Of a stretch of 64,000 bases of DNA, positions 11,557 through 61,296 are shown one piece after another. This DNA comes from Promethearchaeota archaeon (GTDB lineage: Archaea; Asgardarchaeota; Lokiarchaeia; Sigyniarchaeales; SOKP01): contig RDOA01000006.1 in NCBI GenBank assembly GCA_011364925.1, forward strand, positions 32,484-96,483, in the 5' to 3' direction. The notes under the pieces are model-generated. The model did not search any database. It had not been told where the DNA came from and saw only the letters and a program-made list of their open reading frames with translations. The translations under genes were made by a program, and so were the position numbers. Every line of letters begins with the position of its first letter. The first letter of the stretch is position 1.

Positions 11557-11649
11557 TTATTTTGGAGAATTATAAATTATTTCTTAAATAATTAAGCGTC
11601 TCAAATTAATTAGTATTTTCGAATTTTAAAACAAAGAAGTCATTAGCTT

Positions 11650-12306
11650 TTATTCGTTCAAAACTAACCATGCTTTATACTTAAGAGTAAACTTCCCTTT
11701 CTCTAGTGGATCATACCCTGTAGATTCTTCAAAAATGATTTGTTTTATTTCAGAATCAAGTTTTTTATATAAAATCCCAATATTCCTCCTGGCTAAAGTT
11801 ATGCACACTAAAAATAAACAGCCAACGATACTAAAACTAAGTATTAATGCTTCTAATTCATTCGTATACATGTTAGAAAAAGACCAGATAATTATAAATG
11901 GGACAATACTAAAAATACAGTATAAGCAATAATTTTGAGACTGAAAGTTAAAAAAGTTCTTATATATATGACTAATTATAAAACGATCTGCGTCTTTTAG
12001 CAACCAGTTTTTGTATTTAGATTTAAATTTTCTCCCATCTTCCGGACCTATCCCAAACTTTTCTTTAAATTGTTCTTGTTTCAATCTAGTGTCTAGTATA
12101 ATGAATATTTTCCTCACCTTATTTTGAAGAGAAAGAAGGAAGAAACCTAAAACGCTCAAGAATAAACCCAAATATAGATAAACTGGTAATCCGATGCTTC
12201 TTATACCACCTTCAAGGAAAAATATTATGAGGAAGATTGTAATGAAAGCTGAGATAATTTTTTTAATTTCAAATTTCAATAATAAACCCAAGATTGAATT
12301 TACCAT
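11650..12306 (-). CDS. hypothetical 4-TM membrane protein with an internal duplication
   Basis: 218 aa. Its two halves each have 2 TM segments followed by a related tail (LDTRLKQEQFKEKFGIGPEDGRKFKSKYKNWLL versus LDSEIKQIIFEESTGYDPLEKGKFTLKYKAWLV). Confidence 0.5.
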   Translation of the reverse strand: MVNSILGLLLKFEIKKIISAFITIFLIIFFLEGGIRSIGLPVYLYLGLFLSVLGFFLLSLQNKVRKIFIILDTRLKQEQFKEKFGIGPEDGRKFKSKYKNWLLKDADRFIISHIYKNFFNFQSQNYCLYCIFSIVPFIIIWSFSNMYTNELEALILSFSIVGCLFLVCITLARRNIGILYKKLDSEIKQIIFEESTGYDPLEKGKFTLKYKAWLVLNE

Positions 12307-26859: not shown

Positions 26860-28113
26860 TTAAGTTTTAAATAAATCTATTGGATCCTTCTCCATATAAT
26901 AGGGTTTTTCTAGTTTAAATAATTTAAGAATAGTTGGTGCAATTTCTTGATAATGTAGTAGTGGGATTGTCCCCTTTTTAATGTCTTTTCCATAAGCTAT
27001 GAACATCCCTTTATTCGTATGACTAAATGTTTCTGTTTTCCTTTTAATAAAGTAAGAGGATTCTGTGGTGAAAAGATATTTATCATCAAGAATCACTACT
27101 AAATCAGGAAATCCATTTACATTAAATTCGATTACTTTTTCAATATATTTATCTCTTTCGAGGGTCTCCTTAATTAATTGTTTCTTCTTTCTCTCCTCAC
27201 CAATTAAAAATATCGCGCCTACATTTGATGTAAGCTTTTGAATAAAAGAACGGGGTTTATCCTTATCTAAATGTTGAAGTGCTCTTTGTTTTTTAAGTTC
27301 CGAGTCTCTCTTCTTCGAGATAGCCAATCTATTATATAATTTTTTGGTAAAATCAACCCTCATAATAGGACGTATATAATCATAAAGTTTTATAACAAGA
27401 CTATTTACCTTCAGCTCCCTAGCTTTATTTATGTAAAGTAACCTCTTTTTCTCAAGGAACCGGGGAAAGTGAATAACCTTTTTATAAAATTTTAGACCAT
27501 GGTCACTAAAAATTACAATATTGTCAATAGATTTATTATCAATTAATTCTCCGATAAATTTATCAATTTGTTTATATCCAATATTAATGTAAGTATTTAC
27601 TATCCTTTCGCTACCAAAAACTCGATGAGAAATAGCGTCTGGCACTCGAATAACAAAGGTAAGTAAATTAAAATCCTCATTTAATTTTTCTAGAAACAGA
27701 TTTTTCTTGATTTTAAAGGCTTTGAATATCTCTTTTAGCGTTCTACCTTCTATTATCCAATTTTTTTTGTAAATTTGTTCAAGATTTTTTGGAAATGACG
27801 AGAATAAAGGAGATAATATTCCTGCGATCATTTGTCCGTTAATTTCCCAGGCAGGGTATGTTCCAGGGACATTTAAAGCAAAAATTCGAAGAGCTTTTAT
27901 TGAAAATATTGATTTATCCCTCCATACATTTGAATTAAAAACACCTTTAATAGGATGGATAAAAGTAAGATAACCTAGGTTTTCTGGATTTATTCCCGTA
28001 AACAAACAAGGCCATGAAGGAATTGTTGTGTGTGGAGTAGTAACTTCTAATTTTGAGGAAAATCCATTTTCAATTAAATATTTAAGATTAGGTACTTCAT
28101 TATTTTCAAGCAA
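26860..28113 (-). CDS. type I phosphodiesterase/nucleotide pyrophosphatase-like (alkaline phosphatase superfamily) protein, paralog 1
   Basis: The 417 aa are counted from TTG. It has TTIPSWPCLFTG (Thr nucleophile region) and FSDHG. The metal-binding GIDGG segment (IKNVIIGIDGGCFESFQN) lies in frame upstream of the TTG, after the stop at 28189-28191. The start is therefore probably ATT (complement of 28165-28167). Confidence 0.75.
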   Translation of the reverse strand: MLENNEVPNLKYLIENGFSSKLEVTTPHTTIPSWPCLFTGINPENLGYLTFIHPIKGVFNSNVWRDKSIFSIKALRIFALNVPGTYPAWEINGQMIAGILSPLFSSFPKNLEQIYKKNWIIEGRTLKEIFKAFKIKKNLFLEKLNEDFNLLTFVIRVPDAISHRVFGSERIVNTYINIGYKQIDKFIGELIDNKSIDNIVIFSDHGLKFYKKVIHFPRFLEKKRLLYINKARELKVNSLVIKLYDYIRPIMRVDFTKKLYNRLAISKKRDSELKKQRALQHLDKDKPRSFIQKLTSNVGAIFLIGEERKKKQLIKETLERDKYIEKVIEFNVNGFPDLVVILDDKYLFTTESSYFIKRKTETFSHTNKGMFIAYGKDIKKGTIPLLHYQEIAPTILKLFKLEKPYYMEKDPIDLFKT

Positions 28114-37921: not shown

Positions 37922-38674
37922 ATGGTTATCGATAATACAGCAATTATAATACAGGCAAGAATGGAATCAACGAGATTAAGAGGAAAAGTTCTAAAAAACA
38001 TCTATCGAAATAAAACAATTTTAGATTTGCTTATAGAACACTTAAAAATATTAGATCAGAGGATAATTATTGCTACAACCACGAATAAATCAGACGTTAA
38101 AATTATCGAAACTGCAAAAAAACATGATTTAGAATGGTTTCGAGGAGATGAACAAAATGTTTTAAAAAGGTATATTGATTGTGCAACTGAATACGACATT
38201 TCAAAAATAGTTAGAATAACATCTGATAATATTTTTGTTCAACCAGCATTAATAAAACCTTTAATTGATAATAAGAATCAAACATTAGATTATATTTCGT
38301 ATAAAATTGGAGATATAAACGTTGTATTAGCGCACTGGGGTCTGTTTGGTGAATTTGTCACTTTAAGTGCTCTAAAAAAAGTCCAAATTTCTTCAAAAGC
38401 AAAAATGGATTTAGAACACGTAACTTACTATATTTATAATCATGAAGGTGAATTTACCTACGAATATTGGGATGTTCCTCAAGAATTGAATAGATTAGAC
38501 ATTAGATTGACTATTGATACATTAGAAGATTTTAATATTTGTAAAGAAATTGTAAATTATTTACAGAAAAATAACTTAGATTGGCATTATAATAATATTT
38601 TAGAATACATTGATAGCAACCTAGCTTTAAGGAATAAAATAAAAAGAAATATAGAACGGATTAGAAAGATTTAA
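37922..38674 (+). CDS. SpsF/PseF-like cytidylyltransferase-family protein (CMP-nonulosonate synthetase fold)
   Basis: 250 aa. AIIIQARMESTRLRGKVL matches B. subtilis SpsF (FIIQARMGSTRLPGKVL), and RITSDNIFVQP matches RLTGDNPFVDP. Confidence 0.75.
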   Translation: MVIDNTAIIIQARMESTRLRGKVLKNIYRNKTILDLLIEHLKILDQRIIIATTTNKSDVKIIETAKKHDLEWFRGDEQNVLKRYIDCATEYDISKIVRITSDNIFVQPALIKPLIDNKNQTLDYISYKIGDINVVLAHWGLFGEFVTLSALKKVQISSKAKMDLEHVTYYIYNHEGEFTYEYWDVPQELNRLDIRLTIDTLEDFNICKEIVNYLQKNNLDWHYNNILEYIDSNLALRNKIKRNIERIRKI

Positions 38675-38685
38675 TTGTTGGTTTA

Positions 38686-39708
38686 ATGTTGCAAAAATTG
38701 AAAATATTAATTCGTGTTGATGGATACAACGAAATAGGTTTAGGTCACATTTATAGATCCATTACTTTAGCTAATAGATTGAATGAACATGACATACTTT
38801 TTGTCTCTATAGAAGAGTATAAATTGGGCATTAAATTAATCGAAAAAAATAATTTTGATTTAAAGACTATCAAAAATGATAAAGAATTATTTAATATTAT
38901 CACAGAATTCAAGCCTACGATAATTATCAATGACATTTTAGACACTAAAAAAAAATACATAGAGGATTTAAAAAAACTGAAGCTCTTTGTAGTTAATTTT
39001 GAAGATCTTGGAGATGGATCCAAATTAGCAGATTTATTAATAAATGCTCTCTATGAAGAAAGGAGGTCTAAAACAACTCACTATTGGGGTAAGGATTACT
39101 ACATATTGAGAGAAGAGTTTCTTAAGATAGAACACAAATATATCCAAAAAGATATTAAAAATATTTTAATAACTTATGGGGGAACTGACCCTAATAACTA
39201 TACTAAACGAATTTTAAACATTCTTAATGAATTGAAATTAAATAAAGTTAAAATAAATGTAATTCTTGGATTAGGATACAAAGATCCGCATGAATTAATT
39301 GATGTTGTAAAAAATCTAGATCTAGATGTTACCATAAAGCAAAATATTAAAAATATAAGTACGTATATGAGTGAAGCTGACATTGCTTTTACTTCCGCGG
39401 GAAGGACGGTTTACGAACTAGCTTCCATAGGCATACCAACAATCGTTTTAGCTCAAAATAAAAGAGAGAATTTGCATGTTTTTGCAAAAAAAAGTAATGG
39501 TTTTATAAATTTAGGTTTGGGTTATAATTGTTCTGATCAAAATATTAAAGAAACGCTACTTAGGTTGATTAACGATTTCGAATTGAGAAAGAAATTCAAT
39601 TATTTGATGTTAAAAAATGATTTAAAGTCTGGTGTAAATAATGTTCTTAACGCAATTTTAACAAATTACAAAAATTACAAAAATAGTGAAGTAAATGAAA
39701 AAATTTGA
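38686..39708 (+). CDS. PseG/SpsG-like UDP-sugar hydrolase (GT-B fold, nonulosonic acid pathway)
   Basis: 340 aa. The N-terminus ILIRVDGYNEIGLGHIYRSITLANRL matches the PseG signature (R.D....G.GH..R...LA). It overlaps the next gene by 14 nt. Confidence 0.7.
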   Translation: MLQKLKILIRVDGYNEIGLGHIYRSITLANRLNEHDILFVSIEEYKLGIKLIEKNNFDLKTIKNDKELFNIITEFKPTIIINDILDTKKKYIEDLKKLKLFVVNFEDLGDGSKLADLLINALYEERRSKTTHYWGKDYYILREEFLKIEHKYIQKDIKNILITYGGTDPNNYTKRILNILNELKLNKVKINVILGLGYKDPHELIDVVKNLDLDVTIKQNIKNISTYMSEADIAFTSAGRTVYELASIGIPTIVLAQNKRENLHVFAKKSNGFINLGLGYNCSDQNIKETLLRLINDFELRKKFNYLMLKNDLKSGVNNVLNAILTNYKNYKNSEVNEKI

Positions 39709-40771
39709 AGACATAATTGAAAAGGATGATGTTTTAATCATAGCTGAATTAGGAGTAAACTATTATGATATAGCAATTCAAAAAGACATATCTCCAATGG
39801 AAGCTGCAAAATTAATGATTGATGAAGCAAAAAAAAATGGAGCTGATGCTGTAAAATTTCAGTCATATAAAGCAGAAGATTTAGCCTCAAAAAATGCTGC
39901 TGCTTATTGGGATTTAGAAAAGGAGCCATCTACATCGCAACTAGAACTATTTAAGAAGTTTGATAAATTTGGAAAAGAAGAATACATAGAAATATTTGAA
40001 TATTGTAAATTTAAAAATATTATATTTTTATCAACTCCTTTCGATTATAAAGCTGTAGATTATTTAAACGATTTAGTTCCGGTATTTAAAATATCCTCAT
40101 CGGATATAACTAATATTCCGTTTATCAGATATATCTCTAGTAAAGGTAAACCAATTATTTTGTCTACTGGAGCTGCAACGCTTAATGAAATTGAAGAAGC
40201 TGTGAGAGCAATAAGATCTATTGGAGATAACCAAATCTACTTCATGCATTGCATCCTAGATTACCCTACTAAATATAAAGATATTAATCTCAACATGATA
40301 AAAACATTAAGAAAATTATTTCCAGATAATATAATCGGTTTTTCAGATCATACCAGACCAGATGAATTCATGTTAGTACCTGTAATCGCCTTCGCTTATG
40401 GAGCAAGAATTATTGAAAAACATTTCACACTTGATAAAACTATAGTTGGTAATGATCACTACCATGCTATGGACCAAAACGATTTAAAAAAATTAAGAGA
40501 AAATATAAGTTTCGTTAAGTTGATAAGTGGACAATTTGAAATAGAACCTTTAGAATGTGAAAAAATTTCAAGACAGCAGGCAAGACGAAGCCTTGTAGCG
40601 GCTATTGACATATCGAAGGGAGAAATTATAACTCTAGATATGCTAACTTTTAAAAGACCAGGAATTGGAATATCACCAGCAATGATAGATTCTGTTATTG
40701 GTGGAATAGCTTTAGTGGATATAAAAGAAGATGATATACTTACTAGTGAAAAAATTAAATTTAAGGAATAG
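39695..40771 (+). CDS. N-acylneuraminate/pseudaminate/legionaminate synthase family (NeuB/PseI/SpsE-like)
   Basis: 358 aa with a NeuB TIM barrel (IIAELGVNY, GADAVKFQSY, FSDHT) and a C-terminal SAF domain (ARRSLVAAIDISKGEIIT...FKRPG.GISP). Confidence 0.85.
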   Translation: MKKFEDIIEKDDVLIIAELGVNYYDIAIQKDISPMEAAKLMIDEAKKNGADAVKFQSYKAEDLASKNAAAYWDLEKEPSTSQLELFKKFDKFGKEEYIEIFEYCKFKNIIFLSTPFDYKAVDYLNDLVPVFKISSSDITNIPFIRYISSKGKPIILSTGAATLNEIEEAVRAIRSIGDNQIYFMHCILDYPTKYKDINLNMIKTLRKLFPDNIIGFSDHTRPDEFMLVPVIAFAYGARIIEKHFTLDKTIVGNDHYHAMDQNDLKKLRENISFVKLISGQFEIEPLECEKISRQQARRSLVAAIDISKGEIITLDMLTFKRPGIGISPAMIDSVIGGIALVDIKEDDILTSEKIKFKE

Positions 40772-43429: not shown

Positions 43430-43540
43430 AAAAATTTTTAAAAATTTTTAAAAAGCATCTTCTTCTGAAGTCCTATTTGAAGTTTACCAACTTTAAATAT
43501 ATAGGTAAACATAAAAAGAAGAGTTTTTTAATTATGTATA

Positions 43541-43562
43541 ATGAAATATAATTATATTTCAT
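43541..43562. promoter_or_regulatory. perfect 22-bp palindrome ATGAAATATAATTATATTTCAT, candidate operator/TATA region of the RHH-sat operon
   Basis: All 11 base pairs were checked by hand. TGTATA direct repeats flank it (43535-43540 and 43564-69). It ends 43 nt upstream of the RHH gene ATG. Confidence 0.4.
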
Positions 43563-43604
43563 TTGTATACATTAACAAAATTATTGAAATGGTTTGAAAT
43601 TAAA

Positions 43605-43844
43605 ATGTCTGAAGACGAACACAAGGTTGAATATACAACTGTTTCTATCCCTAAACCCTTAGCGGATAAAGTAAAGGAGCGAATGAAAGGAACAGGCTTT
43701 TCATCTGTATCAAGTTATGTTACATATGTACTTAGGCAGGTATTATCCTCAATAGAGCAAGATGAAAAATCAAAACAAGCGTTTACTAAAGATGAGGAGG
43801 ATAAAGTCAAACAACGCCTACGAGATTTAGGTTATATCGATTAA
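43605..43844 (+). CDS. ribbon-helix-helix (CopG/Arc-like) DNA-binding protein
   Basis: About 79 aa from ATG 43605. The sequence YTTVSIPKPLADKVKERMKGTGFSSVSSYVTYVLRQVL fits a beta strand plus two helices. The ORF-track TTG at 43563 lies inside the palindrome region and is less likely. Confidence 0.6.
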   Translation: MSEDEHKVEYTTVSIPKPLADKVKERMKGTGFSSVSSYVTYVLRQVLSSIEQDEKSKQAFTKDEEDKVKQRLRDLGYID

Positions 43845-43876
43845 AACTAATAATAAATGAAAATGTTGATGGAAAA

Positions 43877-45025
43877 ATGATACATCCACATGGTGGTACA
43901 TTAATTAATAAGAACTTGCCTGAGATTGAGAAACAAAAAATTTTAGGTGAAAAAGACGAATTTGTGAAAATTCCTATAGATTCTGAAACCAAGAAAGTGA
44001 TAAAGAGTATTGCGTTTGGAATATTTAGCCCGTTAGAAGGATTTATGAATGAAAATGATACTCTGAATGTTCTTGACCATATGTATCTAGAAAGTAACAT
44101 CGCATGGCCTTTTCCCATTGTTTTAGATATTTCAAAGGAGGAGTCCCAAAGGATAAATATCGATGACCATGTAATTTTAACAAGCATTTCAGATGGACCA
44201 ATAGCTTTACTCAAAGTAGAAGATATTTACGATTATAATAAAAAGATCTTTGCTGAGAAAGTTTATGGAACAAATGATATTAACCATCCCGGAGTTGCAA
44301 AGCTATTTAGCCAAAAAGAGAAACTAATTGGTGGTGAGATATTTCTTATCAACGAATTTCCTGCGCAATTTCCAGAATTGGACTTAAAACCTATAGAAAC
44401 GAGAGTTCTTTTTAAAACAAGAGGTTGGGATAAAGTTGTTGCCTTTCAAACAAGAAATCCACCGCATTTAGGTCATGAATACATTCAAAAGGCAGGATTA
44501 ACTTTCGTTGACGGTCTTTTTATAAATCCTGTGATAGGAAAAAAGAAAACGGGAGATTTTCGTGATGAGGTAATAATTAATGCTTACAAAGCCTTAATTG
44601 AAAATTATTACCCTCAAAATCGAGTAGTATTAAGCACATTTGAAACAGAAATGAGATACGCTGGACCAAAAGAGGCAATTTTTCATGCAATCGCTCGTAA
44701 AAATTTTGGATGTGATCACATAATAATTGGACGAGATCATGCTGGTGTTGGCAATTACTACGGTCCCTACGATGCTCATAAAATTTTCGAGAATTTCCCA
44801 GATTTAGGAATCGAACCTTTATTTTTTAGATCGTTTTCATATTGTTCTAAATGTAACTCAATAGTAAACGATAAAATTTGCCCCCATTCTGCAGATCTTC
44901 ATAAATTTTTCAGTGGATCTCAAATTAGAGATACTTTATTATCTGGTAAACAACCACAATCAGATGTTATGAGACCTGAAATAGCAAATATTATTCTAAA
45001 TTATAAAAATCCATTTTGTGAGTAA
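43877..45025 (+). CDS. sat: sulfate adenylyltransferase (ATP sulfurylase)
   Basis: 382 aa with the motifs FQTRNPPHLGHEY and GRDHAGVG. Confidence 0.95.
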   Translation: MIHPHGGTLINKNLPEIEKQKILGEKDEFVKIPIDSETKKVIKSIAFGIFSPLEGFMNENDTLNVLDHMYLESNIAWPFPIVLDISKEESQRINIDDHVILTSISDGPIALLKVEDIYDYNKKIFAEKVYGTNDINHPGVAKLFSQKEKLIGGEIFLINEFPAQFPELDLKPIETRVLFKTRGWDKVVAFQTRNPPHLGHEYIQKAGLTFVDGLFINPVIGKKKTGDFRDEVIINAYKALIENYYPQNRVVLSTFETEMRYAGPKEAIFHAIARKNFGCDHIIIGRDHAGVGNYYGPYDAHKIFENFPDLGIEPLFFRSFSYCSKCNSIVNDKICPHSADLHKFFSGSQIRDTLLSGKQPQSDVMRPEIANIILNYKNPFCE

Positions 45026-45034
45026 AGTATTACC

Positions 45035-46420
45035 TTGACACAGAAGAAGAGAGTCTTAGTAATTGGATTGGATTGTGCTACACCTAAGACCTTATTTGAA
45101 GATTTCATAGAACATTGTCCTAATATTAGAAATCTCATGGATAATGGTGTTTATGGAAAATTACGGAGTTCAGATCCACCCATCACTGTTCCTGCTTGGA
45201 TGATAATGTCAACGGGTCGCAATGCAGGAGAACTTGGACTCTATGGATTTCGGCACAGGAAGGGTAATTCTTATTCAGATTTTTGGGTCGCTAATTCTCA
45301 AAGCGTAAAAGAACTTAAGATATGGGATATTATTGCCAAGAAGGGTTTAAAATCTATAATTGTCGGTGTCCCTCCTACTTTTCCAGCTCAGCCGATCAAT
45401 GGAAATCTTATTACAGGTTTTATTACACCTGACACCCTTTCACAATTTACATTCCCTCCTGAGTTAAAAGAAGAAATACTTCATGTCGTTAAAGACTACG
45501 AGTTTGATGTAAAGTTTAGAACAGATAACAAGGAACAACTTCTGATTGATCTATATAAACTTACAAGGAAACATTTTGAAGTAGTGAAATATTTAATAAT
45601 GAATAAGGAATGGGATTATTGTCAATTTGTCATCATCGGTTTAGATCGATTTCACCACGCATTTTGGAAATATTACGATAAGAGTCATCACAAATACGAA
45701 CCAGGGAACATCTTTGAAAGTGCTATGAAAAAGTTCTATAATTTCCTCGACAATCAAATTGGGGACCTGCTTAAACTCTTGAACAAAAATGATGTAGTTA
45801 TTATTGCCTCAGATCACGGCGCAAAAGCGATGAAAGGTTGTTTATGCGTAAATATGGCTTTAGAACAACTTGGATTGCTGAAATTCAAAGAAAAACCTAC
45901 TGCTAAAACAAGATTAGAAGACGCAGAGATTGACTGGAAGAATACTTATGCTTGGGGTTGGGGCGGTTATTATGCAAGAGTATTTTTAAATGTAAAAGGT
46001 AGGGAGTCAACGGGAATAATTGAACCAGAAGAATATGAAAAATGGAGAGAGAAATTAATAGCTTTATTGAAACAAATCACTGATGATAAAGGAGAACCAA
46101 TGGATACTAAGATTTATAAACCAGAAGATTTATATCAAATTGTGCGTGGAGATGCTCCAGATCTTATGGTATACTTCGATGATTTAAATTGGAGGTCTGC
46201 TGGGACTGTTGGATATGAATCAATGTATCTCGATGAAAATGATACTGGTCCAGATGATGCTGTACACGATTATTATGGAATATTTGTAATTTCTTCTTTA
46301 AATCGAAAAATTGGCAAAGATTTAGAAGTGAAAAGTATTTTAGACATAACTCCTACAATATTAAATATCTTGGGGATAGAAATTCCGGAAGATCTAAAAG
46401 GAACGATTATAGAATTTTAA
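45035..46420 (+). CDS. type I phosphodiesterase/nucleotide pyrophosphatase-like (alkaline phosphatase superfamily) protein, paralog 2
   Basis: 461 aa with a TTG start 9 nt after the sat stop. It has VLVIGLDCATPK (metal Asp), PITVPAWMIMSTG (Thr nucleophile region) and IIASDHGAKAM. Confidence 0.75.
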   Translation: MTQKKRVLVIGLDCATPKTLFEDFIEHCPNIRNLMDNGVYGKLRSSDPPITVPAWMIMSTGRNAGELGLYGFRHRKGNSYSDFWVANSQSVKELKIWDIIAKKGLKSIIVGVPPTFPAQPINGNLITGFITPDTLSQFTFPPELKEEILHVVKDYEFDVKFRTDNKEQLLIDLYKLTRKHFEVVKYLIMNKEWDYCQFVIIGLDRFHHAFWKYYDKSHHKYEPGNIFESAMKKFYNFLDNQIGDLLKLLNKNDVVIIASDHGAKAMKGCLCVNMALEQLGLLKFKEKPTAKTRLEDAEIDWKNTYAWGWGGYYARVFLNVKGRESTGIIEPEEYEKWREKLIALLKQITDDKGEPMDTKIYKPEDLYQIVRGDAPDLMVYFDDLNWRSAGTVGYESMYLDENDTGPDDAVHDYYGIFVISSLNRKIGKDLEVKSILDITPTILNILGIEIPEDLKGTIIEF

Positions 46421-46446
46421 GAAAAAAAATGTAAATAAGGATAAAT

Positions 46447-46980
46447 ATGGAGCATAAAGGATTCACATTATGGTTTACAGGGCTTGCCTGTTCGGGAAAA
46501 TCTGTTTTAGCTAATGTCGTAGCCGAAGATCTTAAAAAACGAGGGATGAAAGTTGAACGTCTTGATGGAGATATTGTAAGAAAAGGTTTAACGCGAGATT
46601 TAGGATTCTCAGACGAGGATAGAAGAATGAATATTGAAAGAGTTACATTTGTGGCAAAATTGTTGACTAGAAACGGAGTAGCAGTTTTAGCTTCTTTTAT
46701 ATCTCCTTTTAACGATATTAGGGCTTACTCTCGTAAAGAGATTGGAACTTATATTTTAGTGTATGTAAAATGTCCCATCGAAGTATGTGAACAAAGAGAT
46801 ATAAAGGGGATGTACGCAAAAGCCAGAGCTGGCGAAATCAAGCAGTTTACAGGTATTGATTCACCGTTTGAGGAACCAAATAAGGCTGATATTGTTGTAG
46901 AAACTGATAAGCAAACGATTGAAGAGAGCAAGAAAGTAATTTTAGATGCCTTGAGTGAGATGGGATATTTACCAGATTAA
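46447..46980 (+). CDS. cysC: adenylylsulfate (APS) kinase
   Basis: 177 aa with the P-loop FTGLACSGKS, LDGDIVR, and FISPF. Confidence 0.95.
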   Translation: MEHKGFTLWFTGLACSGKSVLANVVAEDLKKRGMKVERLDGDIVRKGLTRDLGFSDEDRRMNIERVTFVAKLLTRNGVAVLASFISPFNDIRAYSRKEIGTYILVYVKCPIEVCEQRDIKGMYAKARAGEIKQFTGIDSPFEEPNKADIVVETDKQTIEESKKVILDALSEMGYLPD

Positions 46981-47012: not shown

Positions 47013-47024
47013 TTTTTCTTTTTT
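47013..47024 (+). terminator. T5-C-T6 tract after cysC (candidate operon terminator)
   Basis: The sequence aatttttcttttttc begins 33 nt after the cysC stop, within the 151-nt gap before the next gene. Confidence 0.35.
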
Positions 47025-47131: not shown

Positions 47132-48493
47132 ATGCCTACCAATATTGTTGTAATTGGAATGGGATACGTAGGTATTCCGATGGCTGTTCTTTTAGCTGAT
47201 GTAGATGATTTTTATGTCACCGGTATTCAGCGAAGATCACAAAGGTCAGGTTGGAAGATTGATTGGCTCAATCAAGGTAAAAATCCTTACGAAGGAGAAG
47301 AACCAGGATTGGATGAATTAATCGAGAGAGTAGTAAAAAGTGGAAAATTCAAAGTTACTGATAAATACGATGATGTTCGTGATGCGGATTACATTTTAAT
47401 CGATGTTCAAACACCAGTTGATGATGAAAAAATCCCTAGATATGCCTCTTTGCTTGATGTTTCTCAAAAAATTGCCAAACATATGAAAAAAGGTGTCACT
47501 ATAATACTAGAGTCTACTGTAGCACCAGGAACAACAGACAATGTTGTACAATCTATATTAGAAGAAAATCGTGGATTTAAGAGAGGTCTCGACTTTTTTT
47601 TGGTGTTTTCGTTCGAGAGAGTAATGCCCGGTAAACTAATTGAATATATCACAGATTTTCCTCGAGTAATAGGAGGAGGCTGTCAAGAAGCTAATGATAA
47701 AGCTAAATTCTTATATGGAAAGGTTGTTAAAAAAGAATTACAAGTAACAGACACATTAACTGCTGAATTGACGAAATGCATAGAAAATGCTTATAGAGAC
47801 GTTAATATTGCATTTGCGAACGAAATGGCCTTATTATGCGAGGATTTCAATAGGAATGTATTCGAAATTATTAATTTGATAAATTATCGCCATGACAGAA
47901 TGATGCATTTTCCCGGTTCGGGTGTAGGAGGTCATTGTCTAACAAAAGATCCTTGGCTTTTACTCTATGGGTTTAATAAATACACTGAGAGATTGAACGA
48001 AGCAAAAATTAAAATTATTCCTGATGCGAGAAAGATTAATGATTTCATGCCTTATCATATGATTGAATTAATGGAAAATGTATTTAGAGACTCTCATAGA
48101 TTAGTAGATAACATAAAGGTGGCACTTCTAGGCGTCTCCTATAAAGCAAATACAGATGATACACGAAATACTCCAACTGAAAATATCGTAAAAGTCCTTA
48201 GAAGTAGATATCATTCCCATAATATTGAATATATCGCTCACGATCCTTTTGTACACGAAAGAGATTACAAACTTACTAAACTTACAAATGACTTCAATGA
48301 AGCGATTACTAACGCAGATGTTTTGATGTTTACAACAAATCATTCTGAATATTATGATATTGATCTTGACGATTTAAAGAAGAAAGTGAGAACGCCAATA
48401 ATTATTGATGGAAGAAACATTTTTGAAAAGAAATTGGTTGAAGGAAAGGGCTTTACTTATCGCAAAGTTGGAGAAGGTTCAAAAAATCACTAG
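47132..48493 (+). CDS. nucleotide-sugar 6-dehydrogenase (UDP-ManNAc/UDP-GlcNAc dehydrogenase WecC/WbpA-like)
   Basis: 453 aa with IVVIGMGYVGIPMAVLLA (NAD) and the catalytic Cys motif GGHCLTKDP. Confidence 0.9.
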   Translation: MPTNIVVIGMGYVGIPMAVLLADVDDFYVTGIQRRSQRSGWKIDWLNQGKNPYEGEEPGLDELIERVVKSGKFKVTDKYDDVRDADYILIDVQTPVDDEKIPRYASLLDVSQKIAKHMKKGVTIILESTVAPGTTDNVVQSILEENRGFKRGLDFFLVFSFERVMPGKLIEYITDFPRVIGGGCQEANDKAKFLYGKVVKKELQVTDTLTAELTKCIENAYRDVNIAFANEMALLCEDFNRNVFEIINLINYRHDRMMHFPGSGVGGHCLTKDPWLLLYGFNKYTERLNEAKIKIIPDARKINDFMPYHMIELMENVFRDSHRLVDNIKVALLGVSYKANTDDTRNTPTENIVKVLRSRYHSHNIEYIAHDPFVHERDYKLTKLTNDFNEAITNADVLMFTTNHSEYYDIDLDDLKKKVRTPIIIDGRNIFEKKLVEGKGFTYRKVGEGSKNH

Positions 48494-48518: not shown

Positions 48519-49550
48519 ATGGAAAATATTTTAATCACTGGTTCTAATGGATTTCTCGGTTCTCATTTAATTGATTATTTAATTGACAAGAAATTTATTA
48601 TTTGCGGTTTAGATCGCCCATCTGCATCTTTTAGAAATCTTGAGCATTATATGGTTGCAAACATAAAAAAGGAGAAATTTCTCGGTAAAAAAATTAAAAT
48701 CAAGAGTAATAAAGAAAATTTATTCTTTTTGGAATGCGATGTTACTAATGCACTGCTGATAGATGAGATCATTTTCGAATTGACACCTAAATATATATTT
48801 CATCTTGGTGCTCAGCCCTATATCCTTCCATCATGGGAAAATCCAGCAAAAACAATTGAAATTAATGTGATAGGTACAATTAACATCTTTGAATCAATTA
48901 AAAGACATAAGATCCCTTCGAGAGTTATATTAGCATGCAGTGCTGCAGAGTTTGGGACGACTACTAGGGTCGGGCGCCCATTAAAAGAAGATGACGCTTT
49001 ATTAGCACTCCATCCTTATGGGATAAGCAAGATTGCGGCTGAACTACTTTCACGACAATATTATATTAATTTTGGGGTCGAATCAATTAATTTACGGTTT
49101 TTCAATTTAACGGGAACAAGGCGAACTAACGATGCTCCTTCTGACTTTATAAGAAAGATCGCTCAAATAGAATTAGGTTTAAAAACACCACCTTTAGAAG
49201 TAGGAAATTTACTTCCGTATCGAGATCTGTTAGATATCGGAGATGCCATAAATGCAGTTTGGTTAGCTGCTACAAAGGGAACACCAGGAGAGACCTATCA
49301 TATATGTTCAGGTGAAAAAATTCAAATTAAGGAACTGTTAGATATTTCGCTTAGTTTTTCCGAGAAGAACATTGAGGTTCTTGAAAACGCTCCTCATATA
49401 GTAAGAAAATCTGATGAGGATATCGTTATAGGTGATAACTCTAAAATTAAATCCGAATTAGGGTGGAAACCAAAGATTCCTATAAATCAAACTCTTAAGG
49501 AGATGTTTGATTATTGGATAAAATTTTATCAGAAAAATCAAGATATGTAA
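48519..49550 (+). CDS. NAD-dependent sugar-nucleotide epimerase/dehydratase
   Basis: 343 aa with ILITGSNGFLGSHLIDYLI and YGISKIAAE (YxxxK). Confidence 0.85.
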   Translation: MENILITGSNGFLGSHLIDYLIDKKFIICGLDRPSASFRNLEHYMVANIKKEKFLGKKIKIKSNKENLFFLECDVTNALLIDEIIFELTPKYIFHLGAQPYILPSWENPAKTIEINVIGTINIFESIKRHKIPSRVILACSAAEFGTTTRVGRPLKEDDALLALHPYGISKIAAELLSRQYYINFGVESINLRFFNLTGTRRTNDAPSDFIRKIAQIELGLKTPPLEVGNLLPYRDLLDIGDAINAVWLAATKGTPGETYHICSGEKIQIKELLDISLSFSEKNIEVLENAPHIVRKSDEDIVIGDNSKIKSELGWKPKIPINQTLKEMFDYWIKFYQKNQDM

Positions 49551-52850: not shown

Positions 52851-54617
52851 TTAATTTGGCATTAAATCTGGAGGAGGTGTCTTAAGGCAGAAACCACATT
52901 TCCCAAATGATTTTATAGTTTGCTCCCAGCAGTGTTTATGATAACTTCGTTCGCAATAAGGACAATCTGTATGACATGTTTCCTCCTCTGATCCTGCTAT
53001 CTTTAAGCTACAAGTCGGACAACCAATTTTATGGCATATAACGCAAGAAACTACTGACACTTCAAAGATTTTTTTGGATATTGCATTAAAAAGGTCTACT
53101 AAATAACTAAAAGGAGACCAATCGTCAAAGAAGGATTTAAAAGAAGATTGGAGATCTTGCTTAATCTTTTCATGCGATTCTAATTCAAATTCATTAGTGA
53201 TTTTAATGGAAGGAACAGTCATGGGGTAATCCACTGGTAGATCAATTTGAAATTGGAATATTAAATCTTGTGTTTTCATCTTACCTTTCATGTCCACATT
53301 CAATATTGAAGTTGATGGATTGTATTCGATCTTCTTATAGTGTTCCTTTAATAGTTCAATTTCAAAGTTAATACGTGAATTTTTATCTACTAACCACGCA
53401 AGTTCTCTGACAATTTCAACGGGTTCCGATTCGCCTTCTGTCCAATTTTTATAAGATTTCAGTTCGGTTAAAGGAGTCCTAATGATTTCTTGTAAATGGG
53501 AAGACAAATTGACTTCTGGGGGTTTAGGATAGGATTCAAGGTTCACATCTAAAAGATATTCTTTAAATCCGTACGTTACTAAATGAACTTTTAATTTTGT
53601 CATATCATCAGTAACTAAATCACATTGATATTCACCATGGATCTTCTTTGATTCTTGTTCAATATCCTTTATGAAGAATAATTTGCCTTCGAGTTCGTGT
53701 AGTATATCAACTATATGGGAAGGGTTATTGGGATTCCAAGCTCTTAATACTTCCAAATTTTGATATACATCACCAATCAGTTTACGAGCTTCTTCTGGAA
53801 CATTTATTAAAGGTTGAGAGGGGAAATTTGTAAAATTAATATTGATTATGAATGTTTTCGTAAGTGTAATTGTTATATAAATATTTAAATCTCCCCTTTC
53901 TTGAGAATTTTGATCGTACGCATATTCCTGTTGAATTAATCCAATTTCTGTGTTTAAAGCTACGCTAGTATTTGAATGATCTGCATAGAGTTCCGGTTCG
54001 GTTAACTCTGGGGTTTCTTTAGATATATTTTCATTTATTTTAAGAACATCATTTTGTTTTGAAGTCTCGCTCGAATCCTTTTCATAAGACAAATCTTCAG
54101 AGTTCTCAGTAGGAGTTACAAATTGCTCGTACTCAAAATCAGGAGGATACGCACTTAAATCAGGCGTAATATATTTTACTTCCTCAGGTTCTTTTTCTAA
54201 CAATTCTCCATCGCGTTTTGTTGTTTCTAAAGGTTCTTCGACAAGTCGATCGTTGTGCTCAATACGATCTTCCAAAATCGTGGTTACCTGCTGATCTATG
54301 TCCCTTTCTGAAACATTTAGAGCTTGAAGGATTTTCACTTTTAGTTCTTGAAGTATTTCTAAGACAGATGAATTCTCAGACCAATCATTTTCTGCTTTTA
54401 AATGAATATCGCCTAATAATTCCTTGAATTCTTTATGATAAATTAATTTTGGAGGAGTATCAGGAAAATCTTCAGTGAATTTGATTTCTAGTTCGTACTT
54501 TGCGTCAGGTGTCTCATAAACATATCCAAATAGATGTTCAATATTACCTGAAACCATCCAAAATGAGAACTTCGCAGCGATTTTCTGAGCTTCCTTTAAA
54601 ATTCTTTGTTTATCCAT
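52851..54617 (-). CDS. four tandem UBC-fold (UEV/RWD-like, no catalytic Cys) domains plus a C-terminal C4HC3 RING/PHD-like zinc finger
   Basis: 588 aa. Four units each have a (Y/F)Pxx(x)P turn and a downstream W...helix: FPDTPPKLIY...DWSENSSVLEILQEL; FPSQPLINV...AWNPNNPSHIVDILHEL; YPKPPEVNL...NWTEGESEPVEIVREL; YPMTVPSIKI...DWSPFSYLVDLFNAI. The C-terminus reads CVIC-x4-CPTC-x11-CH-x2-CPYC-x4-H-x-HC-x10-CGFC. Confidence 0.6.
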   Translation of the reverse strand: MDKQRILKEAQKIAAKFSFWMVSGNIEHLFGYVYETPDAKYELEIKFTEDFPDTPPKLIYHKEFKELLGDIHLKAENDWSENSSVLEILQELKVKILQALNVSERDIDQQVTTILEDRIEHNDRLVEEPLETTKRDGELLEKEPEEVKYITPDLSAYPPDFEYEQFVTPTENSEDLSYEKDSSETSKQNDVLKINENISKETPELTEPELYADHSNTSVALNTEIGLIQQEYAYDQNSQERGDLNIYITITLTKTFIININFTNFPSQPLINVPEEARKLIGDVYQNLEVLRAWNPNNPSHIVDILHELEGKLFFIKDIEQESKKIHGEYQCDLVTDDMTKLKVHLVTYGFKEYLLDVNLESYPKPPEVNLSSHLQEIIRTPLTELKSYKNWTEGESEPVEIVRELAWLVDKNSRINFEIELLKEHYKKIEYNPSTSILNVDMKGKMKTQDLIFQFQIDLPVDYPMTVPSIKITNEFELESHEKIKQDLQSSFKSFFDDWSPFSYLVDLFNAISKKIFEVSVVSCVICHKIGCPTCSLKIAGSEEETCHTDCPYCERSYHKHCWEQTIKSFGKCGFCLKTPPPDLMPN

Positions 54618-58701: not shown

Positions 58702-61296
58702 TTAATCGAAGAGATTGAATGGGGAAATTTGCCGTATTATCTCTCTCATTTTCGTTTCAATTTTATCAGATTCTTTCTTATAATTAAGATTTAATAGGTT
58801 AACCTTTTGAATGACTGCTTCTAAAGAAGGGTTTTCTCGAATATCAAAATAATATTGTAATTGTCCAAATTGGGTTAATAAGTCAAAATATTTAGCAGCC
58901 CAACCTATAACAACAGTAGGAACGCCATTCTTGTAAGCTTGAATTACTGAATGATATCTTGAAGTAATTAAAAAGTCAAATTGTTTTGTAACATTTTCTA
59001 ATTCAATCGAATTTAATTCCTCGACTACAACTTCTACATTCGCATTATTTAGGAATTTATCCTTCAAACTTTTACAGTAAGCTAAATCTTCATAAGAGTT
59101 ATATAGAATGTAGACGTTTTTACCTGATTTTAATAAAGTCTGGATGATCGTATAGTACATAGAATCTATGAATTCCCTATTAGTTCTCGCTAAAACTCTC
59201 GCATTAGGAACTACTCCAACCGAATTTTGCTCGATGTTAACCTTTTTCAGTTCAAAATTTTTAGTTATAATATTGGAAATGTCTTCAAATTTATGAAGTA
59301 ATACTATATCGTGGCTTATTTTAATATTTTCGTGTGTAAACCTTCTAACACTTCTATAACTATCTTTTTCTCTACAATAAATCACTTTTGGGTATCCTAA
59401 GTACCACTTTAAAAGAGGATAAAGAAAAATTCTTTCTCTCAATCTGAAATCAAAAGGTCCAATAGCTTGAGGAAATATGTAATATGGGATAGAAAATTGT
59501 TTAGCCAGAATTATATTGATCAAAAATGGGATCCAAACATATTCCCGGATATCGGAAGACAGCGCAAATCCACTTAAATCAATAATAATTGATTTTTTTA
59601 AAATGGCTGTCGCTTTTGATCTGAAATTATTAATAAATGAGCTGCTAGAGAGATAATTAAATGGAAATCCCAAAACGATAAATTTCTCATTAGTCGTCCA
59701 AGGGATTAATTCAATTTTAAAATACTTTCTTTTATCGTTAAATAAATCTTGATAACTATTAGTAAAATTAAAAAAATTATAGTGATCTTGCCGTTTTTTG
59801 ATTTGATCTAATGCGATCAATGTCATTGCTTGAGAACCTTCGTTGAAAAATTTGCCACCAATTATTACAATATTATTTCTTTTAATTTCGCTAGATTTTA
59901 TTCTTCTTTTACTTATGAGAAATCCTTTTAATAAAATTAAGGGAGGTAAAATGAATTTACCAGTTTGGTTAATAATTACTAATAAAAGTTTCCTAATGCT
60001 TTGTAAGTATTCTGTTTTTATTAATTCGTATTTAATTTTTCTTTTTCTATAAATTTCGCCCCATTTAACATACTTTTGCAATTTCTCTAACTTTTCTTTA
60101 TCTGAGAGGTTAATTTGATATTCTTCCCCCATTTTTGGGATTAATCCCTTTTCTTTTACTAATACTTTAGAAAAGATGAATTGTTCTTTTTCATTTTGTA
60201 TATTTTGGGACTCCCAGATCTGTTCTATAGGTTCATTTTCAAGATTAAATAAGTAAGAGTATTTCTCAAAAATCATTTTTCCTTTTTCTGTTCGAATTAA
60301 GATATTTGATGTACCTTTTACACCTTGTTTTTTTTTAATGTAACAATCGGCAAATACTATATCAGCGTTAGAATTTGCTTTATCGAAACAAAACAAACAT
60401 CTGTTTAATCCAAAATATTTTTTTAAATTTGTTCTGATAGTTTTATCTAATATCAATTTTCTTCCAGAGTTAAAAATTATTTTTGAGTTCCCTGGCCAAC
60501 CATATTTCTCTTTTGTCCGATAGATATATTCTTTTATTATTTCTCTATGCTTAGAATAAATATCCTGCATAAAATGTAAATAATTGAAATTTAGTGTTGA
60601 CGAACAAAAAAGTCCCAGAAATAAAATATTATTTGCATCAATTTTGTTCGATGTAATGAATTTCTTTATCCCAGATAACTGACACGGAGTTCCGATTATT
60701 ATTACTTTATCTTTAGAATTTTCATTTAATTTTTTAATAACATTAAAAACTGATGCTGGCAGGTACTTGGATTTAGCAGATTTAACGATTTTAGGGATTT
60801 CGTTGGTTTCTTCTAATCTTACGGGTGAATTTTCAAAAAAGTTAAAATCTAATATAAAAACGCTCTTATATTCATTAGTTCGTATTAGTTCTTTTATAAG
60901 AGTTGTAATTACTCCACCACTGGTGGAGTTAAATCGCAATTTTTTATCTTTAGTATAAGCAGTATAGCTTTCTATAATGTTACCTTTGATGATCATATCG
61001 ATACTTTTCTCTTTTCTAATTTTTTGAGGAATGAGATCAATACCAGGACAATTATCAAGGCATTTTAGGCACTTTATGCACTTTTCCTCATCTATTTTGG
61101 GTTGAAATATACCTTGTGAAAATTCCATCGATATAGCTTCTTCTGGGCACACAGCAAGACAAATTTCACAAGAAACGCAGAGATCTAGATTACGGGTCTT
61201 TAAAACAGTAGATTCATTCATTGTACTTTTAAATAAAAATTTTACCTCATAGCGATTCTTATTATAGAGAGGTTCTTCCAAATCTATATTTTGCAA
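58702..61296 (-). CDS. fusion protein: 2x[4Fe-4S] ferredoxin + F420-hydrogenase/dehydrogenase beta (FrhB)-like domain + polysaccharide pyruvyl transferase (CsaB/WcaK-like)
   Basis: 864 aa with CVSCEICLAVCP and CIKCLKCLDNCP, then FrhB-like STSGGVITTLIKELI and IIGTPCQLSGIKKF. The C-terminal approximately 380 aa reads VIIGGKFFNEGSQAM...TSRYHSVIQAYKNGVPTVVIGWAAKY. Confidence 0.75.
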   Translation of the reverse strand: MQNIDLEEPLYNKNRYEVKFLFKSTMNESTVLKTRNLDLCVSCEICLAVCPEEAISMEFSQGIFQPKIDEEKCIKCLKCLDNCPGIDLIPQKIRKEKSIDMIIKGNIIESYTAYTKDKKLRFNSTSGGVITTLIKELIRTNEYKSVFILDFNFFENSPVRLEETNEIPKIVKSAKSKYLPASVFNVIKKLNENSKDKVIIIGTPCQLSGIKKFITSNKIDANNILFLGLFCSSTLNFNYLHFMQDIYSKHREIIKEYIYRTKEKYGWPGNSKIIFNSGRKLILDKTIRTNLKKYFGLNRCLFCFDKANSNADIVFADCYIKKKQGVKGTSNILIRTEKGKMIFEKYSYLFNLENEPIEQIWESQNIQNEKEQFIFSKVLVKEKGLIPKMGEEYQINLSDKEKLEKLQKYVKWGEIYRKRKIKYELIKTEYLQSIRKLLLVIINQTGKFILPPLILLKGFLISKRRIKSSEIKRNNIVIIGGKFFNEGSQAMTLIALDQIKKRQDHYNFFNFTNSYQDLFNDKRKYFKIELIPWTTNEKFIVLGFPFNYLSSSSFINNFRSKATAILKKSIIIDLSGFALSSDIREYVWIPFLINIILAKQFSIPYYIFPQAIGPFDFRLRERIFLYPLLKWYLGYPKVIYCREKDSYRSVRRFTHENIKISHDIVLLHKFEDISNIITKNFELKKVNIEQNSVGVVPNARVLARTNREFIDSMYYTIIQTLLKSGKNVYILYNSYEDLAYCKSLKDKFLNNANVEVVVEELNSIELENVTKQFDFLITSRYHSVIQAYKNGVPTVVIGWAAKYFDLLTQFGQLQYYFDIRENPSLEAVIQKVNLLNLNYKKESDKIETKMREIIRQISPFNLFD

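Follow-up and report, generated by a model that had tools for sequence, protein, structure and literature searches.

Two proteins of the alkaline phosphatase (AP) superfamily are the closest described precedent for the locus considered here. Agl30 (VNG1056C) and Agl31 (VNG1057C), both sulfatase-like, have been identified by deletion and heterologous expression as the enzymes that sulfate the N-glycans of Halobacterium salinarum, with donor and mechanism left undecided; Agl31 is cytosolic, and the nearest structures are 5G2U and 6HHM (PMC11980604; Zaretsky et al., 2025). The sulfation of surface glycans in archaea and in many uncultured anaerobic bacteria is largely unexplained, canonical sulfotransferases are mostly absent, and Agl30/31 are the only archaeal enzymes proven for the task. 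Dedicated operons for the synthesis of 3'-phosphoadenosine 5'-phosphosulfate (PAPS) usually carry their own sulfotransferase, as in nodPQ-nodH and raxPQ-raxST, NodH and RaxST being PAPS sulfotransferases of the canonical, P-loop-like kind with 5'-phosphosulfate-binding (5'-PSB) and 3'-phosphate-binding (3'-PB) motifs. Here we describe a stretch of 64,000 nucleotides (nt), referred to as the window, from the contig RDOA01000006.1 of a Promethearchaeota archaeon (GCA_011364925.1, positions 32,484 to 96,483 of the forward strand). Within it, sat and cysC, encoding ATP sulfurylase and the kinase of adenosine 5'-phosphosulfate (APS), enclose the gene of a 461-aa AP-superfamily protein, designated AP461, and a gene for a small, plausibly ribbon-helix-helix (RHH) protein precedes the three. 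By analogy of position with the nod and rax operons, AP461 might be the enzyme that spends the PAPS. Our analysis tentatively favors AP461 as a non-canonical sulfuryl-transfer enzyme consuming activated sulfate, a role that sequence and analogy suggest at somewhat less than an even chance.

The four genes are co-directional and cover positions 43606-46980 of the window in the open reading frame (ORF) listing, with spacers of 32, 9 and 26 nt. The first, placed by orthologue starts and weak RHH profile matches, lies at 43606-43844 (+); its frame is open from a TTG at 43563 (43563-43844), and orthologues support a start at the ATG of 43606, for a product of 79 aa. The sat gene (43877-45025, +; 382 aa) matches PF14306 PUA_2 (3.9e-45) and PF01747 (5.6e-88), its product scores 496 bits against the NCBIfam model NF003166 (cutoff 387), and its translation shows the motifs QTRNPPHLGH and GRDHAG. 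The gene of AP461, a PF01663 protein (Pfam E 1e-44), occupies 45035-46420 (+) and is followed by cysC (46447-46980, +; 177 aa; PF01583 7e-61, TIGR00455 233 bits). The cysC product ends in ...LDALSEMGYLPD and has relatives in the Protein Data Bank (PDB) at 4e-51 with the same type of C-terminal helix. A T5CT6 tract at 47013-47024 (+), 33 nt past the cysC stop, was read from the sequence as a candidate terminator, since archaeal RNA polymerase terminates at T-runs; scans of the window for sigma-70 promoters and intrinsic terminators are uninformative for an archaeon. A previous sequence-only reading of this DNA had drawn the same co-directional unit, with these spacers and the T tract 3' of cysC, and all of it was confirmed.

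As one condition of its refutation, that reading had named a linkage of AP461 to sat and cysC that no relative conserves, a condition that the survey decisively contradicts. A scan of one genome per GTDB species yielded 368 relatives of AP461, of which the best 80 loci (48-73% identity) were analyzed; the linkage counts take in only loci with sufficient flank, and their denominators vary accordingly. The arrangement proved to be conserved to a degree well past chance: sat lies directly 5' of AP461 in 62/68 loci, cysC is directly 3' of it or fused to it in 64/78, a small RHH-type ORF stands just 5' of the cassette in 59/66, and the complete four-gene set is present in 51/65. The archaeal hosts of these 80 relatives comprise Asgard archaea, Bathyarchaeia, Aigarchaeota, Thermofilaceae, Thermoplasmata, Micrarchaeota, Nanobdellati and Methanobacteriota, and the bacterial ones Aminicenantes/Saccharicenans, Acidobacteriota, Eubacteriales, Omnitrophota, Hydrogenedentota, Ratteibacteria, Desulfotomaculum and Desulfocucumis. 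Within the Asgard archaea, where cell-surface chemistry is of special interest, the cassette is common, and counterparts of AP461 in Loki-, Hermod-, Heimdall-, Hod-, Odin- and Thorarchaeota share 65-84% identity with it. Two Hodarchaeota/Promethearchaeota loci share not only the order small ORF-sat-AP461-cysC but also the same flanking genes, an isoleucyl-tRNA synthetase (IleRS) gene and one with ubiquitin-conjugating (UBC) and RWD domains. This last gene, coding in the window for a UQ_con plus RWD protein (52851-54617, -), keeps its synteny with the cassette and IleRS across several Asgard genomes; it and its counterparts (L001, 11511-13202; L002, 11828-13501) encode proteins of 560-590 aa with a eukaryote-like E2/RWD architecture.

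Mean identity to the window proteins in the more distant half of the loci is similar for all four genes (small ORF 52%, sat 53%, AP461 52%, cysC 59%), suggesting that they travel and evolve together. Between Bacteria and Archaea, AP461 is about 50% identical, a rate about equal to that of sat. The genes around the cassette are specific to each lineage and mostly housekeeping: transketolase, transaldolase and PfkB in Asgard archaea, PhoH, 7TMR-HD and HypD/E in Aminicenantes, and aIF2-gamma, aIF5B and S6e in Bathyarchaeia. This indicates that the cassette is self-contained and not a component of one glycan cluster. Taken together, these features define a self-contained, horizontally mobile four-gene sulfation unit whose order is conserved across many archaeal and bacterial phyla. 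The proposal of an embedded, uncharacterized AP-superfamily enzyme tied to sat and cysC is thus borne out by the neighborhood survey, through both conserved linkage and gene fusions (see below). It is very unlikely that AP461 serves glycan or nucleotide-sugar metabolism as a generic phosphodiesterase or nucleotide pyrophosphatase, in a position without functional meaning. Its placement in PF01663 would suit such a role, as would distant members found in clusters without sat or cysC, for instance the phosphonate/LicD-type locus L090; against it stand the sat-AP461-cysC order kept in dozens of species of two domains and the fusions to Sat, CysC or pyruvate kinase (PK), which make up no fewer than five independent architectures. 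The linkage data effectively exclude a coincidental position.

Departures from the standard order also occur. A TauE-type permease adjoins the cassette in several loci, and a short-chain dehydrogenase/reductase (SDR) gene lies 3' of cysC in Aminicenantes and in some Asgard loci. A Bathyarchaeia variant (L041, L043, L050, L074, L075, L077, L079, L083) consists of small ORF-sat-AP461 and two tandem PhoU+TrkA_C genes, with no adjacent cysC; if those Bathyarchaeia are without any cysC, APS and not PAPS would be the relevant nucleotide. In three loci (L042, L044, L078) the order is small ORF-AP461-SDR-NDP-sugar dehydrogenase, without sat or cysC. At L085, AP461 is followed by a dehydrogenase, and small ORF, SDR, sat and cysC were not detected.

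The protein itself aligns with PF01663 (Phosphodiest) over residues 7-407 (profile positions 1-342), at 154 bits against a cutoff of 23. Its match to PF00884 (E 0.005, 16.6 bits) stays under the cutoff of 25, which leaves it outside the sulfatase subfamily, and it has no informative NCBIfam model. The predicted nucleophile is T51 (PPITxPAW), and the predicted metal ligands are D13, D204/H208 (GLDRxHH), D260/H261 (SDHG) and H411 (GPDDAVHD), their equivalence to residues of nucleotide pyrophosphatases/phosphodiesterases (NPPs) resting on motif order and not on structural superposition. D13, T51, D204, H208, D260, H261 and H411 are invariant in 32 orthologues, and the motifs occur in 73-77 of 77 full-length orthologues; among distant relatives, D204, H208 and H411 do not vary, while D13, D260 and H261 are almost constant. 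About 22 residues past T51 lies a YGFRHR loop, kept throughout the orthogroup, including the loci that lack sat and cysC (H to Y in L085), and absent from haloarchaeal relatives and from AP417, a paralogue in the window described below. No signal peptide, transmembrane (TM)-like or other hydrophobic segment is predicted in AP461, which sets it apart from secreted or ecto-localized NPP hydrolases and makes a cytoplasmic location probable.

Structural comparisons place AP461 near the same family. A single-sequence search of PDB with AP461 found no relative, and a profile search gave marginal sulfatase matches only (6HHM, E 0.01), with T51-I-P-A-W aligned to the sulfatase C-A-P-S-R signature. An AlphaFold2 (AF2) model (pLDDT 76, pTM 0.81) is closest in fold to ENPP1/3/4/5/6/7, autotaxin and Xac NPP, at 12-15% identity; the top Foldseek hits, namely ENPP1, ENPP7, ENPP5, Xac NPP, ENPP4 and autotaxin, have E-values of 2e-10 to 4e-8, a probability of 1.0 and TM-scores of 0.44-0.53. 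Judged by its predicted catalytic residues and modeled fold, AP461 is a deeply divergent NPP-like member of the AP superfamily with an apparently intact catalytic site.

Natural fusions link the AP461 domain to the enzymes of sulfate activation. AP461 precedes APS kinase in a 777-aa protein of the cultured Desulfotomaculum copahuensis (L053), which has no sat adjacent, and also in L062; APS kinase precedes AP461 in P0138. Sat is joined in front of AP461 in P0136, AP461 is continued by a PK barrel and Sat in P0167 and by PK in P0215, and an NTP_transferase domain precedes it in P0156. On the side of a possible acceptor, AP461 is fused to a family 2 glycosyltransferase (GT2) in P0131 (locus L091), directly 3' of sat-cysC, and to an S-adenosylmethionine (SAM)-dependent methyltransferase in P0244. 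For the fusion in the cultured D. copahuensis genome, an assembly artefact is unlikely; for the GT2 fusion, an assembly or frameshift artefact was ruled out by a complete AP domain and an in-frame Pro-rich linker to GT2.

The distribution of these fusions, with Sat, CysC and PK on the donor side and GT2, methyltransferase and nucleotidyltransferase on the acceptor side, is consistent with a PAPS-using, glycan-modifying transferase, the one role that would bridge both; the linked SDR and dehydrogenase genes also belong to the acceptor side. The absence of canonical sulfotransferases from the window (see below) likewise counts in favor of this role. The fusion without adjacent sat in D. copahuensis, a sulfate reducer, suits a consumer of PAPS and would be odd for a pyrophosphatase, as the kinase neither makes nor uses pyrophosphate (PPi). 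Since the small ORF-AP461-SDR-dehydrogenase order persists without sat and cysC, with YGFRHR intact, AP461 does not appear to be merely an accessory of sat. As a precedent for transfer, AP-superfamily proteins are genetically proven archaeal sulfotransferases (PMC11980604). In the mechanism we envisage, Thr51, activated by two metals, would take the sulfuryl group from PAPS (or APS), the polyanionic nucleotide being held by the subfamily-specific basic residues of YGFRHR and K264. The group would then be passed on to a conserved hydroxyl acceptor, which could be a sugar nucleotide, a lipid-linked glycan or the invariant tyrosine of the C-terminal LGY tail described below. The RHH protein would repress the operon at a periodic AATTA operator and be coupled to the enzymes through that tail.

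The wider PF01663 family of AP461 (12,750 representatives of 50%-identity clusters at E <= 1e-3) supports the transfer reading in so far as it behaves as a set of tailoring enzymes, both in haloarchaeal glycosylation clusters and, through AP417, in the glycan cluster of the window. Among 72,556 plasmid records, all 62 with AP461-family matches are haloarchaeal, often with several copies, and the haloarchaeal family genes examined sit amid glycosyltransferases, flippases, GNATs and 'sulfatase' genes. The best plasmid E-values to AP461 belong to tail-less relatives of about 447 aa in Natrinema thermotolerans (L086, 9011-11305) and Halopiger (L005, 7697-11308). One such relative adjoins an inorganic diphosphatase, and the Halopiger one adjoins a PHO4/PiT-family transporter and a tail-bearing PAPS_reduct-family protein. 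Agl7 (HVO_2046) of Haloferax volcanii was considered as a PF01663 sulfotransferase and is not used as evidence, its family not being established; a Haloferax PF01663 protein as query returned no Agl7-labelled homologue, and the Haloferax locus examined is a different glycan cluster.

Some of these fusions also suit a different role, in which AP461 would remove pyrophosphate, as an inorganic pyrophosphatase or a PPi-using phosphotransferase, and thereby pull the very unfavorable Sat reaction. We regard this role, which the sequence data likewise suggest, as possible but rather unlikely. The cassette would then be a complete PAPS synthase, composed of sat, PPi removal and cysC, and the transferases would be sulfatase-fold proteins encoded elsewhere. 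AP461 is fused to two PPi-releasing nucleotidyltransferases, namely Sat (P0136, P0167) and NTP_transferase (P0156), and to pyruvate kinase (P0167, P0215). ATP sulfurylase, APS kinase, pyrophosphatase and pyruvate kinase form the classic enzymatic set for PAPS synthesis. AP461 is, in addition, as conserved as sat and cysC, its flanks are mostly housekeeping genes, and its extra basic residues would suit a polyanion. At L087, a PHP-family phosphoesterase gene (10911-11756) lies directly 3' of the AP-PK-Sat gene, and a 92-aa PQ-loop protein is encoded 5' of it (7184-7462). PHP proteins include a known 3',5'-bisphosphate nucleotidase, and the PHP protein of this locus is a candidate for that activity. 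Here PK could serve for ADP, the PHP protein possibly for 3'-phosphoadenosine 5'-phosphate (PAP) and a sulfatase-like gene as the transferase, which would leave PPi for AP461. Further precedent comes from natural fusions of ATP sulfurylase with pyrophosphatase (PMC2275785) and from the ATP sulfurylase-inorganic pyrophosphatase-APS kinase (AS-IPP-APSK) triad of Entamoeba (PMC6801973).

Several points argue against pyrophosphate removal. AP461 matches neither family I nor family II pyrophosphatases in Pfam or NCBIfam. NPP-like enzymes are diesterases and pyrophosphatases acting on nucleotides, and to our knowledge no inorganic pyrophosphatase is known in PF01663. The D. copahuensis AP461-CysC protein without a local sat, the retention of AP461 beside the RHH gene and SDR at loci devoid of sat and cysC (L042, L044, L078) and the GT2 and methyltransferase fusions would be left unexplained or poorly accommodated. 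General pyrophosphatases are, moreover, nearly universal, so that a separate case would have to be made for strictly keeping a dedicated one once the cassette has been transferred horizontally, and the multi-copy paralogues of haloarchaeal glycan clusters are unlike pyrophosphatases.

A third role had been put forward in the sequence-only reading, with AP461 as an analogue of CysQ that controls the nucleotide pool by hydrolyzing PAP at its 3'-phosphate or by cleaving PAPS or APS. Of the three functional readings this is the weakest, and on present sequence evidence it seems quite improbable. The tight linkage and the fusions to CysC and Sat would agree with it, as would the nucleotide chemistry of the fold: NPP-like proteins bind adenine nucleotides, AMP-bound structures of ENPP1/3/4 are among the nearest folds of the model, and conserved basic residues would suit a bis-phosphorylated nucleotide. 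High conservation is likewise expected for an enzyme with a small-molecule substrate. Fusing the degradation of PAPS or PAP to the kinase that makes PAPS would, however, risk a futile cycle, and at L087 the PHP phosphoesterase directly after AP-PK-Sat suggests that the role may already be filled. The fusions to GT2, methyltransferase and nucleotidyltransferase and the loci without sat and cysC would remain unexplained, AP461 has no match to the IMPase family or to DHH/PHP (CysQ-type) families in Pfam or NCBIfam, and CysQ-like enzymes of the IMPase type are widespread in archaea. Beyond these three, some probability is reserved for roles not yet imagined, including an action on the tail tyrosine.

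It had further been noted that no PAPS-type sulfotransferase was recognized in the window. This was upheld for canonical folds: a Pfam scan of all 51 predicted window ORFs of >=80 aa (smallest ORF taken 70 aa) gave no match to Sulfotransfer_* or related families at E <= 0.01, for AP461 or any other ORF. A 550-aa ORF with no family match was considered as a hidden sulfotransferase and ruled out, having 14 TM-like segments and a flippase/polymerase-like character. The absence need not mean that AP461 is the sulfotransferase, because the glycan cluster encodes an Agl31-like sulfatase-fold protein at 25308-26765 (-; 485 aa; PF00884 3.4e-38 plus SGSH_C). At the position of the formylglycine signature this protein reads E-T-P-S-A, and all 120 of its Asgard homologues (50-73% identical) read [E/A]-[T/S]-P-[S/T]-[A/S], never C/S-x-P-x-R. 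With the signature replaced, these proteins cannot be formylglycine-dependent sulfatases, though Thr/Ser is kept. Several of the homologues lie on contigs equal in length to contigs that bear the AP461 cassette. No TM segment is predicted in the 485-aa protein. By analogy with Agl31, it is the best sulfotransferase candidate of the window and likely a non-hydrolytic transferase. Next to it lies the second PF01663 gene, AP417 (26860-28113, -; in-frame extension to 28170; Pfam 4e-23), whose product is 29% identical to AP461 over 260 aa (BLASTP 2e-18). The metal-ligand segment VIIGIDGG of AP417 lies in frame 5' of the first ATG/GTG/TTG (28113), which points to a non-canonical start or a sequencing error and not to a truncated gene. 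Neither AP417 nor the small RHH ORF has an informative NCBIfam model. These two further AP-superfamily genes, like the PPi-removal role, were absent from the earlier account.

Sulfatase-fold genes also adjoin the cassette itself in L025, L032, L049, L053 and L087, and this co-occurrence is one of several observations that weigh against sulfuryl transfer by AP461, since AP461 would then be unneeded to explain sulfation. Conservation of AP461 equal to that of sat better suits a small-molecule housekeeping step, unless the acceptor is conserved too. The YGFRHR/K264 residues are not shared with the relatives in haloarchaeal glycan clusters, so that PAPS use across the family is not supported. The fusions to Sat, to pyruvate kinase and to a PPi-releasing nucleotidyltransferase would fit PPi removal at least as well, and most genes flanking the cassette are housekeeping genes. 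At the metagenomic locus L090, a nucleotidyltransferase-AP fusion lies amid genes for phosphoenolpyruvate (PEP) mutase, LicD, CTP_transf_like+PPDK_N and a sulfatase-like protein with a tail mini-ORF. This has the composition of a phosphonate/phosphocholine-type decoration cluster, suggesting that some PF01663 relatives may handle phospho and not sulfo groups.

With regard to regulation, the 79-aa protein is 79-95% identical in close Asgard relatives and 39-62% across phyla and domains. Its best matches in a PDB profile search are NikR RHH domains (E 0.016), with the strand and both helices aligned; Pfam RHH_1 (PF01402) is touched by 5/14 members (best E 0.0018), the window protein itself not being matched. 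Just 5' of the gene lies an operator-like region (43520-43572) in which AATTA/AATGA/CATTA units recur with a 10-bp period; a perfect 24-bp palindrome, AATGAAATATAATTATATTTCATT, lies within it at 43540-43563. Of 44 archaeal loci, 57% have AATTA-N5-AATTA arrays 5' of the orthologous small ORF, compared with 2% of 144 intergenic control windows (Fisher p 4e-16, a value that overstates independence and is anticonservative, as the loci are related). The conserved operator-like repeat adds strong support to an RHH assignment that is weak by sequence. The protein is thus plausibly an RHH regulator, in keeping with the CopG-like gene suggested earlier, and an autoregulatory RHH repressor would be the natural reading of the repeats.

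The RHH protein ends in a distinctive tail (residues ~59-79, AFTKDEEDKVKQRLRDLGYID, nt 43780-43841) that follows the motif [FY][ST]xEEEE..RLxxLGY[ILM]x-COOH and is as conserved as the RHH part. The same tail terminates 114/120 haloarchaeal PF01663 proteins of about 540 aa and 26/150 diverse representatives of the family, CysC-AP and AP-PK fusions among them, and it was found at the end of 0/120 cassette-type AP461 orthologues. Haloarchaeal proteins of the sulfatase family end in it as well, as do a protein of the PAPS_reduct family and the Sat of one Micrarchaeota cassette, and it occurs as stand-alone mini-ORFs of 29-44 aa directly 5' of sulfatase-like genes or sat (L087, L088, L090). Altogether it was observed in the window and in L004, L005, L049, L087, L088, L090, L092 and L093. 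The motif was matched 96 times in about 1 Mb of fetched loci, in every case on a tail-type protein, with 0 matches in shuffled controls and 1 in the window, and the tail tyrosine is invariant (211/211). This distribution is a robust observation. Ordinary APS kinases close with a similar helix (e.g., ...LKKLMELGYL-COOH in 7yq1), from which the tail may derive. When a natural enzyme that carries the tail in cis was modeled with AF2, the tail came out helical at pLDDT ~41-54; the model was set aside as evidence for a docking site, this confidence being too low.

The complementary distribution of the tail in cis and in trans suggests that it couples the RHH protein physically to the enzymes. A portable tyrosine tail that recurs on a regulator, in mini-ORFs and on no fewer than four enzyme families from sulfation loci likewise points to physical coupling in the pathway. 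A bolder proposal, to which we assign a slim chance, is that the tail acts as a sulfuryl carrier: AP461 would sulfate the tail tyrosine, tail-linked sulfatase-fold and PF01663 enzymes would use the sulfotyrosine as glycan donor, and the sulfation state would feed back on transcription. Enzymes with the tail carry it in cis or have a tail mini-ORF beside them. AP461 would be tail-less and highly conserved because both of its substrates, PAPS and the tail, are conserved, and sulfotyrosine would suit the sulfatase fold because aryl sulfates are the natural chemistry of that fold. Such a carrier mechanism, weakly supported as it is, would be categorically new. In a milder version, the tail would be a docking peptide, descended from the C-terminal helix of APS kinase, that gathers Sat, CysC, AP461 and transferases into a sulfation metabolon and tethers the repressor.

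The setting of the cassette in the window deserves a brief description. Downstream lie genes for an NDP-sugar dehydrogenase (47132-48493, +) and an SDR epimerase/dehydratase (48519-49550, +), both assigned by Pfam/NCBIfam, which form a sugar-nucleotide module loosely associated with the cassette. The SDR was considered as a UDP-sulfoquinovose synthase, which was ruled out by a generic N-terminal SDR match of 41 bits against a cutoff of 575. Glycan genes are dense at 24-63 kb, with family 4 glycosyltransferase (GT4), GT2, NeuB, cytidylyltransferase, PIG-L, GNAT, Wzx-like and pyruvyl transferase genes. The glycan setting described previously therefore holds for this genome, but the cassette is not intrinsically part of it, most lineages having housekeeping flanks. 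In the Asgard glycan cluster, a nonulosonic (sialic-acid-like) sugar module (37922-40771, +) comprises a CTP_transf_3 cytidylyltransferase, a GT28-C-like protein and NeuB+SAF. The edge of the cluster holds an 864-aa fusion (58702-61296, -) in which 4Fe-4S ferredoxin and FrhB/FdhB (F420-dehydrogenase beta-like) domains are joined with a polysaccharide pyruvyl transferase domain. At 2335-4065 (-) is encoded a 576-aa protein that consists nearly entirely of leucine-rich repeats (LRR_14 7e-81), the sole one in the window.

Our search of the literature found no description of the cassette, of PF01663-sat/cysC fusions or of the tail, and nothing relevant on COG3379, AP-superfamily PAPS sulfotransferases or Asgard sulfation. 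Compact and widely transferred, the cassette unites sulfate activation, a predicted two-metal enzyme and a dedicated regulator, and offers a testable candidate for the missing step of surface-glycan sulfation. If AP461 is a sulfotransferase, a second branch of the AP superfamily would take part in sulfuryl transfer, providing a rule by which thousands of 'alkaline phosphatase family proteins' could be annotated; if it removes pyrophosphate, it would solve the thermodynamic problem of ATP sulfurylase in a new, non-homologous way. In both cases, 'nucleotide pyrophosphatase' and 'alkaline phosphatase family protein' are labels that say nothing useful and are open to improvement.

Compared with known systems, AP461 combines features that are otherwise found apart. 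With the NPPs (Xac NPP, ENPP1/3/4/5) it shares PF01663, the two-metal site, the Thr of T-x-P, DxxxH, SDHG and the distal His; it differs from these hydrolases in an insertion of about 100 residues, in its embedding between sat and cysC and in having no signal peptide, and its YGFRHR loop lies at what we take to be about the position of NPP Asn111. EptA/MCR-1 and LtaS are AP-superfamily enzymes in which a metal-activated Thr carries a group from a donor to a hydroxyl or phosphate acceptor of a surface glycoconjugate; they belong to the sulfatase family, are membrane-anchored, face the periplasm and transfer phospho-alcohol groups from lipids. The proposed Thr51 intermediate would be analogous to theirs, whereas in AP461, linked as it is to PAPS synthesis, no membrane segment is predicted. 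The nodPQ-nodH and raxPQ-raxST operons resemble the cassette in clustering activation genes with a spender of PAPS, proposed in the case of AP461, which is without the 5'-PSB and 3'-PB motifs. In the ATP sulfurylase-pyrophosphatase fusions of stramenopiles and haptophytes (PMC2275785) and in the Entamoeba triad (PMC6801973), a third enzyme is joined to sat and APS kinase, as AP461 is; those partners are canonical family I pyrophosphatases, to which AP461 is unrelated in fold. Finally, Agl30/31 and AP461 are alike in an archaeal AP-superfamily core of IPR017850 type tied to sulfation in place of the PAPS-sulfotransferase fold. They differ in that Agl30/31 are of sulfatase fold, proven genetically and without reported linkage to sat/cysC, whereas AP461 is PF01663/NPP-like, known from sequence and linked to both genes. 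The closer analogue of Agl31 in the window is the 485-aa protein encoded at 25308-26765, set beside Agl30/31 by description and not by alignment. AP-superfamily sulfotransferases are thus already known in Agl30/31, and AP461, if it is one, would represent a different branch, hard-wired to the synthesis of PAPS.

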